Source: a virus (Duplodnaviria; Heunggongvirae; Uroviricota; Caudoviricetes). Taken from it: a stretch of DNA of 33,311 nucleotides. Shown one piece after another: positions 2,795 to 9,589 of this stretch (its first letter is position 1; each line of letters opens with the position of its first letter). The stretch covers positions 1-33,311 of the IMG/VR virus record IMGVR_UViG_2778261498_000008, one strand, 5' to 3'. Position numbers and translations under genes: made by a program. A model generated the notes under the pieces. That model did no database searches, was not told where the DNA came from, and saw only the letters and a program-made list of their open reading frames with translations.

Positions 2795-2880
2795 CAGAGC
2801 AAATAAAACCACAGGTTAAATAAGAAAATGTAAAAACAATCCGCATTCGCGGAGGTATTCGCACACGCCAAGGAGGCGTA

Positions 2881-3084
2881 ATGGCAATTAAGCATTTTCC
2901 TGTCGTTCGTTTTACCTCCAGAGGACGTGAATACGAAGTCGATGAACGCCTGATTACCACAATCGACAAACACCGTTCAGAAAAGGATGCACATCACATC
3001 TATCTCACTGACGGCACTTACTTCTGCGCCACGAATGTGGTGCGGGTGAACCTTATCCGACAGGTACAGGAGTCACGCAGATGA
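2881..3084 (+). CDS. Hypothetical early protein (67 aa)
   Basis: ATG preceded by strong SD AAGGAGG; stop overlaps next start. Confidence 0.55.
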   Translation: MAIKHFPVVRFTSRGREYEVDERLITTIDKHRSEKDAHHIYLTDGTYFCATNVVRVNLIRQVQESRR

Positions 3085-3326
3085 CCATTCTGGACTATAT
3101 CGCCGCCAATCCGGGGTGTAGTGGTGGAGAAATCGCCGCAGCACTGAATACCCCAACCACAGCCATTAATGCGGAGTTACGCCGACTCTGGCGCAGCGGT
3201 TCAGTCATAAGAAAAGAACGCAAAACAGGCGGTCGCTTTTCTTACCAGATAAACCCGATGCCGTTCGGGTGCGGCAATCCACTTACCAACATGTTTAACC
3301 AGCTACTGAAGGAAGCCAGAGCATGA
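3081..3326 (+). CDS. Hypothetical early protein (81 aa), possible small DNA-binding protein
   Basis: ATGA-coupled to the upstream gene; no motif verified. Confidence 0.5.
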   Translation: MTILDYIAANPGCSGGEIAAALNTPTTAINAELRRLWRSGSVIRKERKTGGRFSYQINPMPFGCGNPLTNMFNQLLKEARA

Positions 3327-3622
3327 ACGCCATCAACCTCCAGGAATTACGCGAACTGGCGATTGACCTGCAACGAATGGCAACGCATCAAAAATTACTG
3401 GCGTTTCGCGCAATGCTCTCGCCGTCTGCCGTGCTGGCACTGCTGGATGAGCTGGAGCACGCCAGAACCATGTCTCCAGCCATTCGCCTGGCGCTTCATC
3501 ATGAAATCGCTGATTTCTGCGCACCACTGGGTTCGCCTGGTGAACCAGAAACGCCGGAAGCAATGCAACGAGAGCTACTGCAACGCATCGACAAGGTTTT
3601 TGATTTCTTCCTTAACCAGTAA
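3323..3622 (+). CDS. Hypothetical early protein (99 aa)
   Basis: ATGA-coupled ORF in the early operon; no family recognised. Confidence 0.5.
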   Translation: MNAINLQELRELAIDLQRMATHQKLLAFRAMLSPSAVLALLDELEHARTMSPAIRLALHHEIADFCAPLGSPGEPETPEAMQRELLQRIDKVFDFFLNQ

Positions 3623-3633
3623 AGGACCGCGAT

Positions 3634-3837
3634 ATGAACAAAAAGACCTGGTTTCGCGCATACATGTGGGCGCTGGTATGCGTCCTCGTTTCTCTCATTC
3701 TGTATGCAGGACTACTCCCCCGAATGATTTCATCAGACAGCTCCTTCCTGGTATTGCTGGGCATTTTCATTGCCATGCTGTACCCGGCAGGCGTTGTTCG
3801 CCTTTTCAGTAAGTACATCAAGGAAATCAAACAATGA
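3634..3837 (+). CDS. Small integral membrane protein (67 aa, two predicted TM helices)
   Basis: ATG 3634 with AAAGGA upstream; two hydrophobic stretches; stop overlaps the start of the next gene (ATGA at 3834-3837). Confidence 0.55.
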   Translation: MNKKTWFRAYMWALVCVLVSLILYAGLLPRMISSDSSFLVLLGIFIAMLYPAGVVRLFSKYIKEIKQ

Positions 3838-4664
3838 AGAAATTCAAACTCTTTCAGATTCTCCCGCTTTTTGCTGCCATCCTGCTGGTTGGTTGCGATC
3901 GCGTTGAGCCAGGTAATGTGGGCATCAAAGTCAACAAACTGGGCGACGACAAAGGCGTCGGTGAAGTGGTTGGCGTTGGCCGCTACTGGACAGGCTGGAA
4001 TACAGAGGTTTACATCTTCCCAACCTTCAAACAAATGAAGACCTACGATGAGCCGTTCAGCTTTCAGATGAGTGACGGCACAACCATCGGCTATCACATC
4101 GGTGTGGCCTACAAGGTTGATCCATCCAAAGTTACTACAGTGTTTCAGACCTACCGCAAAGGCGTGGATGACATTACCGACACTGACCTGCGCCAGAAGA
4201 TCGCCGACGCACTCAACCGACTGGCCAGTAAAATGACCACCGATAAATTTATCGACGGTGGCAAGTCTGAACTGCTGGATTCAGCACTTAAAGACATTCA
4301 GGCAGAAATGACACCTATCGGCATTCAGGTAATGAGCCTCTCTTATGTCGGTAAACCGGAATACCCACCAACCGTTATCGACAGCATTAATGCCAAAGTC
4401 ACGGCAAACCAGAAAACTCTGCAACGCGAACAGGAAGTCAAGCAGCGCGAAGCAGAAGCCAACATGCTACGCGCAGAAGCAGCCGGACAGGCTGATGCCA
4501 TTCGCACAAAAGCCCAGGCTGAAGCCGACGCCATTCGTTTGCGCGGTGAAGCTCTGCGCCAGAACCCCGGCGTTATGGAGCTGGAAGCTATCAACAAATG
4601 GAACGGCACGCTGCCGCAATACATGACCAGTAATACCGCTGTTCCGTTTGTTCCGGTGAAGTAA
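3834..4664 (+). CDS. Lipoprotein with SPFH/band-7-like domain and C-terminal Ala/Glu-rich coiled coil
   Basis: N-terminus MKKFKLFQILPLFAAILLVGC has a signal peptide and lipobox (LVGC); the C-terminal REAEANMLRAEAAGQADAIRTKAQAEADAIR tract resembles the EA-repeat coiled coil of HflK/HflC/flotillin-type proteins. Domain assignment is by pattern recognition only. Confidence 0.75.
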   Translation: MKKFKLFQILPLFAAILLVGCDRVEPGNVGIKVNKLGDDKGVGEVVGVGRYWTGWNTEVYIFPTFKQMKTYDEPFSFQMSDGTTIGYHIGVAYKVDPSKVTTVFQTYRKGVDDITDTDLRQKIADALNRLASKMTTDKFIDGGKSELLDSALKDIQAEMTPIGIQVMSLSYVGKPEYPPTVIDSINAKVTANQKTLQREQEVKQREAEANMLRAEAAGQADAIRTKAQAEADAIRLRGEALRQNPGVMELEAINKWNGTLPQYMTSNTAVPFVPVK

Positions 4665-4670
4665 TTAAAC

Positions 4671-4715
4671 CCGGCCAGTGGAAACCGCTGGCCGGAGCAG
4701 CATCAGGATTTTTTA
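4671..4715 (+). terminator. Hairpin CCGGCCAG/CTGGCCGG followed at a distance by a T6 run
   Basis: 8-bp perfect stem (4671-4678 / 4688-4695) directly after the lipoprotein stop; the T-run is ~13 nt downstream, so not a canonical intrinsic terminator. Confidence 0.4.
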
Positions 4716-4810
4716 GTATGCCGTTCTCACAAAAAAACCGCTTGCCATGCCGCAATCAGTCAGGTTACATTTCCGCTGCACCTCATAAAACGGGTGCCGG
4801 GATTTCCACC

Positions 4811-4852
4811 CCGCTGACTATACACGCGCACAACCGCGCCAGCGGTTTTTTT
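4811..4852 (+). terminator. GC-rich hairpin (CCGCTG...CAGCGG with inner GCGC stem) followed immediately by T7
   Basis: Read directly: stem 4811-4816 / 4840-4845, then TTTTTTT at 4846-4852. Looks like an intrinsic terminator or the 3' end of a small RNA. Confidence 0.5.
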
Positions 4853-5031
4853 GTGCGTACCGTATCGCCACGTCTTTTTCGCGTCAGAATTATGGTGGGG
4901 CGTATGGGGCCGACTTCGGTCGGGCCGGGTTCGTGTATAGCCGGTTGTGGAAACCCTGTACGTCTCACCACCCCGAGTTTTCCACCTCTGGATGGTGAGT
5001 TTTCAAAACTTACTATACACGAGGCCACACC

Positions 5032-5262
5032 ATGGCAAACCGCAAACAGCACCGCGCTATCGCGGAGCGTCGTCACATCCAGACTGAAATCAACCGCAGA
5101 CTTTCCCGCGCATTCCGCGTCGCTAAAATCATGCACATCAATATGCTGCATGAGCGTAGCTGCGAACTTTCAAACCTCTATTCATCCGCTGTTTTCAGCT
5201 ATCTGGCGGATGATCTGCGCGAGCTTCAGCAGCTCATCCAGCAGCAAAACAAACTCCATTAA
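5032..5262 (+). CDS. Hypothetical basic protein (76 aa)
   Basis: ATG ORF after the long structured intergenic region; Arg/Lys-rich N-terminus; function unknown. Confidence 0.5.
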   Translation: MANRKQHRAIAERRHIQTEINRRLSRAFRVAKIMHINMLHERSCELSNLYSSAVFSYLADDLRELQQLIQQQNKLH

Positions 5263-5334
5263 TTCCTGTTCCGGGCCTTTCCTGCACCTTGCGGCGGGAG
5301 GCCTTCGCACATCTGTAGTAAAGAGAATTGCAGC

Positions 5335-5724
5335 ATGATTGACGCTCATGACTTCACAAGATGGGTGCGCACACAGGACACCCGTCTGGCTCCCGTTCTT
5401 CAGGGATTATTTGATCTTTACATCCGTGGTCGTGACAACAGAGCACGCACTACAAAACCGGAGAATGCGGACACCCTTTATTTCACAGTAGACGACTGCT
5501 ACCGCGTGGACTTCACACCACACGGGCTGGCGTTGCACTGCCTGACACCACACGGCGAATCACTGCTGGCGTATTACGACTCCCCGGCCTCCGTATTCGC
5601 GGCAATGCTGGCGCATCGCACTGCTGGCGGGTGTGCCTCGCTGAGTGAATACACCGCTGAATTTAACCGCCTTTCCGCCATCTTCTCGCAGGAGTGGCAG
5701 CGCGTGACGGGATACCAGCCATGA
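5335..5724 (+). CDS. Hypothetical protein (129 aa) immediately upstream of, and coupled to, gene A
   Basis: Stop overlaps the A start (ATGA at 5721-5724). Confidence 0.5.
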   Translation: MIDAHDFTRWVRTQDTRLAPVLQGLFDLYIRGRDNRARTTKPENADTLYFTVDDCYRVDFTPHGLALHCLTPHGESLLAYYDSPASVFAAMLAHRTAGGCASLSEYTAEFNRLSAIFSQEWQRVTGYQP

Positions 5725-8629: not shown

Positions 8630-9589
8630 ATGAAAATTCACATCGACGACGGCTCCACCAACATCAAGCTGGCATGGACTGAGAACGGCGAACGCCGCAA
8701 CGCCATCAGCCCGAACAGCTTCAAGTCGGAATGGTCTGCGCCGTTCGGTGGCACGCAGCCCGCGAACTACATGCTTGATGGCGTGCGCTATGGTTTTGAT
8801 CCGGTCAGCGATCGCTTTGTCCAGACGACCGACACGCAATACCAATACAGCGATGTGAATGTCATTGCCATTCATCACGCGCTGGTCAAATCAGGCATCA
8901 CGCCACAGGAGGTGGATGTGGTTGTCACCCTGCCACTGAGCGAGTATTTCGACACAAACGCACAGCCGGACATGGCCAACATCAACCGCAAAAAAGCGAA
9001 CGTTATGCGCCCGGTGGAGTACCAGAACGGCGAAGCATTCACTATCCGTAACGTGCGGGTTATGCCTGAATCCATTCCGGCTGGCTTTAAGGCACTGGCT
9101 GACATGAGTCCGTTTGAATCCCTGCTGATTGTGGATTTGGGCGGAACCACGCTGGATGTGGCAAAAGTTCAGGGGCAACTGGCAGGTATCAGCCAGGTGT
9201 TTTGCGATCCACACGTAGGCGTTTCTCTGATGGCCGATGCCGTACTGTCGGTGATGGCCACTAACGGTATGCGCACCAGTCACCACATCGCCAATACCAT
9301 TATCGAACATCGCCATGATGAAGCCTGGCTGCGCCAGCACATCCACAATGACGCGCATTACGCCAGCCTGATGGCGGTTATTCGTGAAAAGGAAGAAACA
9401 CTGAAACAACGCGTGATCCGCGCGCTGGCGGGTTTTTCGGGTTACGGGCGGGTGATGGTTGTCGGTGGCGGGGCGGAGATTGTGGCACCCGCTATCCGCG
9501 AAGCCTGCGGAGTTAATGCGAATTTCATCGCGGACGGGGTGCCACAGTTTGCTCTGGTTAATGGGCTGTACGCAATGGACAAGGAGTAA
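8630..9589 (+). CDS. parM: Actin-like segregation ATPase, ParM/StbA family
   Basis: N-terminus MKIHIDDGSTNIKLAW...ISPNSFK...YSDVNVIAIHHAL and later VMPESIPAG, LIVDLGGTTLDV and VMVVGGGAE closely parallel plasmid R1 ParM as recalled; AAGGAAAAG SD upstream. Confidence 0.85.
   Translation: MKIHIDDGSTNIKLAWTENGERRNAISPNSFKSEWSAPFGGTQPANYMLDGVRYGFDPVSDRFVQTTDTQYQYSDVNVIAIHHALVKSGITPQEVDVVVTLPLSEYFDTNAQPDMANINRKKANVMRPVEYQNGEAFTIRNVRVMPESIPAGFKALADMSPFESLLIVDLGGTTLDVAKVQGQLAGISQVFCDPHVGVSLMADAVLSVMATNGMRTSHHIANTIIEHRHDEAWLRQHIHNDAHYASLMAVIREKEETLKQRVIRALAGFSGYGRVMVVGGGAEIVAPAIREACGVNANFIADGVPQFALVNGLYAMDKE

Follow-up and report, generated by a model that had tools for sequence, protein, structure and literature searches.

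The 33,311-nucleotide (nt) stretch analyzed here (the window; positions 1 to 33,311 of IMG/VR virus record IMGVR_UViG_2778261498_000008) comes from a phage closely related to Escherichia phage P88 (Xuanwuvirus, Peduoviridae). Its early operon carries a pair of genes, one for a 67-residue membrane protein and one for a 276-residue lipoprotein of the SPFH (Band 7) family, which form a single functional unit. The module is best seen as an SPFH scaffold of variant architecture, anchored by lipid and accompanied by a two-helix transmembrane hairpin that is either a separate polypeptide or fused to the scaffold, and it is widespread and strongly selected. SPFH proteins are universal membrane scaffolds whose roles in bacteria are poorly understood, and those encoded by phages have been noted only in genome annotations. 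We consider it somewhat better than an even chance (about 0.55) that the pair constitutes a split SPFH cage module which acts at the inner membrane during the lytic cycle.

An earlier reading of the letters of the window (the original prediction) had placed two open reading frames (ORFs) within 3634-4664, and had proposed that a two-helix membrane protein is translationally coupled, within the early operon, to an SPFH-type lipoprotein with an Ala/Glu-rich C-terminal coiled coil. All of these elements were recovered, the ORFs lying on the + strand at 3634-3837 and 3834-4664. The 276-residue protein matched Pfam Band_7 (PF01145) with an E value of 7.6e-31 (107.9 bits against a cut-off of 23.6) over positions 2-176 of the 176 in the profile, and phrog_200 with an E value of 4.9e-112; the smaller protein matched the hidden Markov model family phrog_1130 (E 1.3e-22). 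Because of these three family matches, neither frame can be regarded as a chance ORF. An AlphaFold2 monomer model of the SPFH protein, built with 94 homologues, reached a mean predicted local distance difference test score (pLDDT) of 89.2 and a predicted template-modeling score of 0.70. It comprises an alpha/beta domain at residues 21-176 (strands in 21-95, helices in 97-159 and a strand at 164-176), followed by a 65-residue helix at 179-243, a short helix and a tail. Residues 196-245, inside the long helix, are rich in Ala, Arg, Glu and Gln.

Fold comparison of this model with the PDB using Foldseek returned 65 chains at E ≤1e-3, and the top 36 were all SPFH cage proteins, aligned over 182-303 columns. 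HflC was the best match (7vhq_G, E 1.5e-13), followed by PHB1/2, erlin 1/2, HflK, stomatin, flotillin and QmcA, with the major vault protein ranking after the SPFH cage proteins. Alignments to the solved SPFH proteins were full-length at 13-18% identity, and those spanning 250-300 columns superimposed the 179-243 helix on the wall helices of HflK/C, prohibitin and erlin. By profile, predicted structure and fold search, the 276-residue polypeptide is a bona fide SPFH protein. Model confidence falls to pLDDT 53-75 over the last 30 residues, in the tail, where W256 and G258 are invariant and P261 is nearly invariant or invariant (alignments A1 and A3). By analogy with solved SPFH cages, the tail at residues 244-276 is a candidate cap or oligomerization element.

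SPFH proteins are attached to the membrane at their N-termini, and here a predicted lipobox takes the place of a transmembrane helix. The N-terminus reads MKKFKLFQILPLFAAILLVGC|D, with a basic n-region, a hydrophobic core, and a lipobox (L-V-G-C) that ends at Cys21 and is followed by Asp at the +2 position. Read as MKKFK-LFQILPLFAAILL-VGC, the signal conforms to the pattern [LVI][ASTVI][GAS]C within the first ~35 residues. The lipobox Cys is conserved at ≥90% in alignments A1 and A3. According to the '+2 rule', Asp at this position predicts inner-membrane retention in E. coli, and Asp22 should therefore keep the E. coli version at the inner membrane, on its periplasmic side.

The 67-residue partner contains two hydrophobic segments (~9-30 and ~35-57), separated by a nine-residue turn (PRMISSDSS) and bounded by basic N- and C-termini. 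From the positive-inside rule it is predicted to form an N-in/C-in hairpin with almost no periplasmic exposure. Only four positions are kept in the partner family (alignment A5): Pro29 is invariant, and Ser33, Gly43 and Pro51 are conserved at ≥90%. The conserved, putatively periplasmic turn reads L-P29-R-M-I-S33-S. The partner belongs to no Pfam or NCBIfam family, its best Pfam match being RseC_MucC at E 0.032, below the cut-off. A profile search collected 166 homologues, all of 55-87 residues, and among these we found no Pfam domain, named homologue or other fusion partner. In PADLOC-DB v2 the hairpin gave only PDC-M18B, a match that is not significant (E 0.0078 over 21 residues), and the SPFH protein gave no match. 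Partner ORFs are unannotated in the RefSeq records of phages phiP27 (62 residues; L003 2262-2450) and RCS47 (78 residues; L004 2230-2466).

The two genes are closely coupled. Their ORFs share 4 nt (ATGA), and each is preceded by a Shine-Dalgarno sequence, AAGGA. In a survey of 190 viral loci spanning 27-100% identity, an ORF with two transmembrane segments was located directly upstream of every distinct lipoprotein-type SPFH gene (76/76). The two ORFs overlap by 4 nt in 49 cases and by 20 nt in 6, and are separated by gaps of 3 nt in 11 and 140-158 nt in 9; the turn motif P-x-h-h-S was present in 73 of the 75 partners that were scored by script. The sole apparent exception to the pairing, locus L122, resulted from a mis-called start. 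None of the three transmembrane-anchored SPFH relatives in the same set of loci has a partner. When two abundant partner homologues were used as the starting point, an SPFH gene was found downstream with a 4-nt overlap in all five genomic places.

Natural fusions provide further evidence that the two polypeptides belong together. Twenty of the best 150 representatives (50%-identity clusters, from a search of 1.84 billion clusters) are hairpin-SPFH fusions, and a profile search identified 44 more. In these proteins the hairpin is followed by a linker, a third hydrophobic helix that ends in an invariant lipobox Cys, and then the SPFH protein; the fused homologues examined are also prophage genes. 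In the fusion alignments (A2 and A4) the Cys is invariant even though it lies ~60-120 residues into the protein, past three hydrophobic helices, and signal peptidase II may cut such fusions internally, which would yield hairpin part and lipoprotein at a ratio of 1:1. The model of a fused E. coli protein, P0001, is confident (pLDDT 86.8) and places three N-terminal helices ahead of the SPFH protein. P0001 (347 residues) occurs on one 94-kb contig of a P1-like element and joins a P1-type partner in frame with the SPFH lipoprotein at the junction ...KTRKLINEK|TLISAAIIFGSLCLTGCD...; it may represent a genuine fusion of the type seen in other bacteria, or may result from an indel or sequencing error. 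The simplest reading of the pairing and the fusions is that of a split SPFH, in which a lipid-anchored scaffold works with a separate, or fused, transmembrane polypeptide. Coordinates of the module and its parts are collected in Table 1.

Table 1. Positions of the SPFH-hairpin cassette and its component features in the window
Feature	Position	Strand	Basis or remarks
Whole cassette	3623..4727	+	1,105-bp presence/absence insertion: ribosome-binding site, hairpin gene, SPFH gene, 3' stem-loop
67-residue predicted helical hairpin, N-in/C-in	3634..3837	+	ORF list; phrog_1130
SPFH/Band 7 lipoprotein precursor, 276 residues	3834..4664 (including stop)	+	Pfam PF01145; phrog_200
Predicted lipoprotein signal peptide (1-20) and lipobox L-V-G-Cys21	3834..3896	+	sequence; +2 = Asp22
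SPFH (Band 7) alpha/beta domain, residues 23-209	3900..4460	+	Pfam envelope
Long single helix, residues 179-243	4368..4562	+	DSSP on model; coiled-coil/wall element of SPFH cages
C-terminal tail, residues 244-276, with W256-x-G258-x-x-P261 (KWNGTLP)	4563..4661	+	alignments A1, A3
G+C-rich stem-loop, 11-bp stem	4671..4695	+	just past SPFH stop; U-run 13 nt further on

To gauge selection on the module, the P88-like copy was compared with those of the lambdoid phage phiP27 and the P1-like RCS47. The mature SPFH proteins are 95-98% identical, with nonsynonymous divergence (dN) of 0.010-0.026, synonymous divergence (dS) of 0.50-1.29 and dN/dS ratios of 0.01-0.04, and because of these ratios the frame is considered coding. 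The partners of the same three copies share only 21-48% identity (dN 0.47-0.98), and the signal peptides differ as well. As judged from these substitution rates, the mature SPFH protein is under extreme purifying selection while the hairpin drifts. Megablast identity to Shiga toxin (Stx) phages and P1-like phages begins at the Cys codon. A recombination breakpoint at the lipobox was considered and ruled out, since dS values of 0.5-1.3 imply long separate histories and the contrast reflects unequal constraint. Constraint of this strength on the SPFH protein fits a molecule that uses its entire surface, for homo-oligomeric contacts, for binding to a conserved host target, or for both.

The module is abundant and occurs in very different genomic settings. 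The SPFH gene is found in 531 of 5,426 complete E. coli genomes (~10%), at 417 chromosomal and 195 plasmid places, and at least 80% of the stretch 3623-4727 is present in 145 E. coli genomes, including a chromosome (NZ_CP043181) with a 100% match to the cassette. The copies from E. coli are frequently met in pathogenic lineages and Stx phages. In IMG/VR we identified 402 close loci, and tblastn detected SPFH relatives in 716 phage records. Lambdoid prophages carry the module in the early-left accessory region, between a CI-type repressor and xis/int; P1-like phage-plasmids carry it among tRNA genes upstream of a dnaB-like helicase gene; in the N4-like phage Moo19 it lies just past the phage RNA polymerase genes, and in the V5-like phage KNP2 it lies among DNA-metabolism genes such as those for DNA ligase and exonuclease. 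It is common in strictly lytic phages, both N4-like and V5-like, and more distantly Vi01-like. Annotated neighbors in the contexts examined included no lysis or virion genes. The absence of such neighbors, together with carriage by obligately lytic phages, therefore suggests a general job in the lytic program and argues against lysogeny control or lysogenic conversion.

The borders of the cassette could be defined precisely by comparison with a sister phage, P88_4B11 (L002), which is collinear with window positions 2801-3622 and 4728-5354 and has 18 bp in place of the intervening 1,105 bp. The left edge coincides with the TAA of the upstream Ead/Ea22-like gene, 11 nt before the ATG of the hairpin gene, and on the right the cassette stops immediately ahead of CACAAAAAAACCGC, before the isrK region. 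The window is 94.9% identical to P88 at the nucleotide level over 3323-4900, and among near-identical Xuanwuvirus genomes the cassette is present in some and absent in others. These sharp borders between collinear relatives are a property of morons; a promoter and terminator of its own for prophage expression, the other property of morons, are lacking. A scan for promoter consensus sequences, itself a crude search, found no promoter-like site between 2495 and 4742, and nothing convincing upstream of the pair in the phiP27 and RCS47 contexts. At the 3' end, the stem-loop of Table 1 folds with a free energy of -26.9 kcal/mol (z -3.81; 1 of 200 shuffles folded as well), and an equally crude terminator scan made no call for it on the + strand. 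The stem-loop marks the 3' end of the cassette and is no canonical intrinsic terminator. Base composition shows no clear sign of foreign origin, G+C content being 0.509 for the cassette and 0.537 for the window.

At the head of the operon that receives the cassette stand a C-type repressor gene and a divergent Cox-like gene, the same layout as the C-repressed Pe operon of P2 (order cox-orf78-B-orf80..83-A). Since the cassette is promoterless and lies inside a C-repressed early operon, its action is expected after infection or induction and not in the lysogen; its expression should thus be confined to these early phases. Taken together, the best explanation of the borders and context is that of a mobile accessory cassette in the early lytic operon of P88-like phages. 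Canonical P2 was predicted to have nothing comparable, and a tblastn search of its whole genome with both proteins indeed produced nothing better than E 2.3. The novelty of the pair, on the other hand, had been overstated. Apart from its wide distribution, the P88 counterparts are annotated as 'membrane protein' (gp11) and 'putative SPFH domain protein / lipoprotein' (gp12); they are 98.5% and 99.6% identical, respectively, to the window proteins, and belong to the same family with no structural difference. NCBI names the homologues 'SPFH domain-containing protein', and the Moo19 pair, gp30/gp31, is annotated as 'similar to N4 gp19' and 'N4 gp20, predicted HflC'. The P88 and Moo19 pairs (PHROG 1130 plus PHROG 200) are known from database annotations only. 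The identification is therefore right yet already annotated, and the obligate pairing is the main addition to the annotation.

Among proteins of solved structure, HflK and HflC (PDB 7vhp/7vhq, 7wi3 and 9cz2) are the best match to the phage protein by sequence (phmmer E 7e-4) as well as by fold. They likewise consist of an SPFH domain, a long wall helix and a C-terminal tail, and they have the orientation predicted for the phage protein, on the periplasmic face of the inner membrane. Identity is nevertheless only 16-18%, and NCBIfam equivalog scores fall far below their cut-offs (hflC, 24.8 bits against 134.4; hflK, 22.7 against 159.4; PRK11029, 18.6 against 427; PRK10930, 18.1 against 660). 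HflK and HflC are adjacent paralogues, each with an N-terminal transmembrane anchor; the phage has a single lipid-anchored SPFH gene whose neighbor encodes a hairpin with two transmembrane segments and no SPFH domain. By these sequence measures, the phage protein is no orthologue of HflK or HflC.

The SPFH-NfeD pairs offer a second comparison. In QmcA-YbbJ (PDB 8z5g) and YqiK-YqiJ, an SPFH scaffold is encoded beside a co-expressed small membrane protein of the same complex, and the overlapping upstream partner gene of the phage module reproduces this arrangement. QmcA-YbbJ is thus an earlier example of an SPFH cage whose small membrane partner is encoded by the neighboring gene, and QmcA itself matches the phage protein in fold (Foldseek E 4.9e-8). 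The partners are unlike each other in that the phage hairpin, at 67 residues, lacks the C-terminal OB-fold domain of NfeD, which was absent from its Pfam matches. QmcA is cytoplasm-facing and anchored by a transmembrane segment, whereas the phage SPFH protein is a predicted exported lipoprotein. A different kind of likeness is that to membrane-level superinfection exclusion factors, such as T4 Imm and Sp, T5 Llp, Cor, and Ltp of S. thermophilus. These are small membrane proteins and/or lipoproteins made early in infection, and the analogy is one of architecture and timing only.

With these comparisons in mind, the following mechanism can be proposed. The hairpin and the lipoprotein would be made in coupled fashion early in lytic growth, and the mature lipoprotein, by analogy with solved full-length SPFH proteins, would most likely oligomerize into a ring or dome and so enclose a patch of the membrane. 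The cage would be located on the outer (periplasmic) face of the host inner membrane. Its membrane-spanning 'pickets', which in ordinary SPFH proteins are part of the N-terminus, would be provided in trans by the hairpin. Such a structure may serve to condition or shield the inner membrane of the infected cell, either through superinfection exclusion at the stage of DNA entry or by preserving an intact, energized membrane until programmed lysis. The specific shielding role, taken by itself, is a tentative proposal to which we give clearly less weight than to the split cage module as such. Somewhat less probable again is the fully detailed version, in which a periplasmic SPFH cage and a fence of fast-evolving hairpins in trans, made early by both temperate and virulent phages (P2-like, lambdoid, P1-like, N4-like and V5-like), would isolate part of the inner membrane, so as to block entry of a superinfecting genome or to insulate the cell against premature collapse of the membrane through holins or loss of proton-motive force. 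A membrane-level exclusion factor had been named as an alternative in the original prediction and is a plausible candidate role.

Several observations weigh against the split cage proposal. Cage formation is carried over from solved relatives, inner-membrane location is predicted from the +2 residue, and contact with the partner is putative. The hairpin is barely exposed to the periplasm, so that any contact with the SPFH protein must lie at, or within, the surface of the membrane. The Asp retention signal may be weakened by Arg at +3, and across the family the +2 residue is D, E, G, S, T or Y; because of this variability, inner-membrane retention cannot be assumed for all family members. In a widespread cluster, P0118, Tyr replaces the lipobox Cys (...GIIGYDRVEPG...). 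Without the Cys, P0118 (276 residues; 175 contigs, Enterobacteriaceae) could not be lipidated and would stay anchored by its signal or be processed otherwise. Given how crude the promoter scan is, some expression of the cassette in lysogens could also occur. Finally, our literature search turned up no functional study of, or experiment on, any member of the family, and a 2026 paper on an N4-like phage states that the reason for the gene 'remains unclear'. Neither the 2009 classification of SPFH proteins nor a 2026 survey of Pseudomonas SPFH proteins covers members that are lipoproteins or come from phages, and papers on the defense hotspots of P2-like phages (PMC9122126, PMC13586616 and PMC13100340) make no mention of SPFH, band 7 or lipoprotein.

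The main competing idea, also put forward in the original prediction, is that the phage protein modulates the FtsH protease. By mimicking or competing with HflK/C, it would tune the stability of a CII-, CIII- or Xis-like regulator and thereby the choice between lysis and lysogeny. The FtsH-HflK/C complex is linked to lambda CII, and the rank of HflK/C among the solved matches, along with the shared periplasm-facing topology predicted at the inner membrane, would be expected on this account. HflK/C match no better than prohibitin, erlin and stomatin, however, and the lack of orthology and the single lipid-anchored subunit, in place of a transmembrane-anchored HflK plus HflC pair, fit it poorly. 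The switch of the window phage is of the P2 C/Cox type, with no CII family detectable by Pfam, and the module is common in obligately lytic phages, in which lysogeny control would be irrelevant. The proposed action on FtsH, and through it on a repressor or CII-type protein, therefore drew no support, and we regard it as unlikely; membrane shielding or conditioning is ranked first, above control of lysogeny through FtsH.

Alternatively, the cage might organize or restrain holins, spanins or Sec-dependent lytic enzymes, acting as a scaffold for lysis or secretion that sets the time of membrane failure. SPFH homologues are frequent in large lytic phages, and in Kayvirus the distant homologue MbpS, described as a predicted membrane protein, is encoded between the endolysin gene lysK and the lytic enzyme gene tgl, beside a holin-like small membrane protein; the authors of that work speculated that MbpS aids Sec-dependent export (PMC7150955). 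The Kayvirus protein is only 24-27% identical, that proposal is itself speculation, and the module here has an early or accessory location with no annotated lysis neighbor, whether in the P88-like, lambdoid, P1-like, N4-like or V5-like context, which makes a lysis or secretion scaffold improbable. Less probable again is a virulence lipoprotein of the lysogenic-conversion type, expressed from the prophage, exported in, for example, outer-membrane vesicles, and acting as a TLR2 agonist or envelope modifier. There is a precedent in PM0222 from a prophage island of Pasteurella multocida, an HflK/C-like SPFH protein that is reported to be released in outer-membrane vesicles and to activate TLR1/2, and whose deletion attenuates virulence in mice (PMC9872710). 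Its reported role concerns the animal host rather than phage biology, and it is likened to the phage protein here by description. The frequency of the E. coli copies in pathogenic lineages and Stx phages would also suit a virulence function, but the cassette is promoterless and its early operon is repressed, the +2 Asp favors retention at the inner membrane over surface or vesicle export, and virulent phages that never lysogenize carry the module too. That the cassette is a functionless hitch-hiker, a selfish or decaying insertion of no benefit to the phage, can be almost dismissed. Its presence/absence polymorphism among near-identical Xuanwuvirus genomes is what such an element would display; the low dN/dS at high dS, the invariant synteny, the preserved ATGA coupling, and retention across unrelated phage families and ~10% of E. 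coli genomes are not.

If the module is an exclusion or membrane-protection device, it would represent a new mechanism of phage-phage competition that bears on phage therapy cocktails, and if the periplasmic cage is real, it would define a widespread and so far unrecognized class of phage membrane-takeover functions. If it is not an exclusion or protection device, it is an accessory gene of the ordinary kind, with its limits now more closely drawn. In either case the module is small (~1.1 kb) and abundant in E. coli, Stx phages, P1-like phage-plasmids and N4-like and V5-like phages, and the phages that carry it are genetically tractable. Through its obligate pairing with a minimal hairpin, and through the natural fusions, it offers a compact system in which to ask how an SPFH cage couples to its transmembrane part.

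Some features of related loci deserve mention. A published table lists a 'superinfection exclusion protein' next to the SPFH gene of a Vi01-like phage (PMC3220722). A link to T4 Imm-type exclusion was considered and rejected, as the neighbor is a P22 gp17-type soluble protein (PF17420) and no membrane partner. Genes of this gp17 type lie immediately upstream of the module in both Moo19 (L198 2891-3205) and the Vi01-like phage PhiSH19 (L005 2638-2958, - strand); their recurrence in unrelated virulent families could be due to chance or could reflect a conserved accessory block. PhiSH19 also has an unannotated 72-residue ORF with two transmembrane segments (L005 2432-2650, - strand) that shares 4 nt with the start of the SPFH gene. 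Its long basic loop points to the opposite topology and to a different family.

Upstream of the cassette in the window are a gene for a MarR-type winged-helix protein (3081-3326) and the Ead/Ea22-like gene (3323-3622; phrog_4144, with a weak Pfam Ead_Ea22 match), both of which are typical for lambdoid accessory regions rather than for P2. Further downstream, just past the gpA replication gene, positions 8630-9589 encode a full ParM-type plasmid segregation actin (StbA_N, E 6e-82; ParM_N, E 2e-68), which is also annotated in P88 and is an uncommon gene for a P2-like phage that integrates. Directly 3' of the cassette is a full-length gene for the Hfq-binding small RNA isrK (4778-4852; 63.5 bits against a gathering score of 50), flanked by a promoter-like site at 4742-4771 and a terminator-like site at 4832-4847. 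It is followed by a full-length C4 antisense RNA (4888-4975; 77.3 bits against a gathering score of 45) and a 76-residue ORF (5032-5262) that matches the Pfam 'Derepression protein family' (E 6e-7). Together these three elements look like an RNA-controlled antirepressor or derepression switch of the P1 immI or P4 type, located here within the early region of a phage of the P2 family. The 206-residue ORF at 4718-5338 (+ strand), which covers both RNA genes and the derepression ORF and whose 205-residue counterpart in P88_4B11 (L002 3312-3929) is annotated as a 'transcriptional regulator', is probably a spurious gene call.

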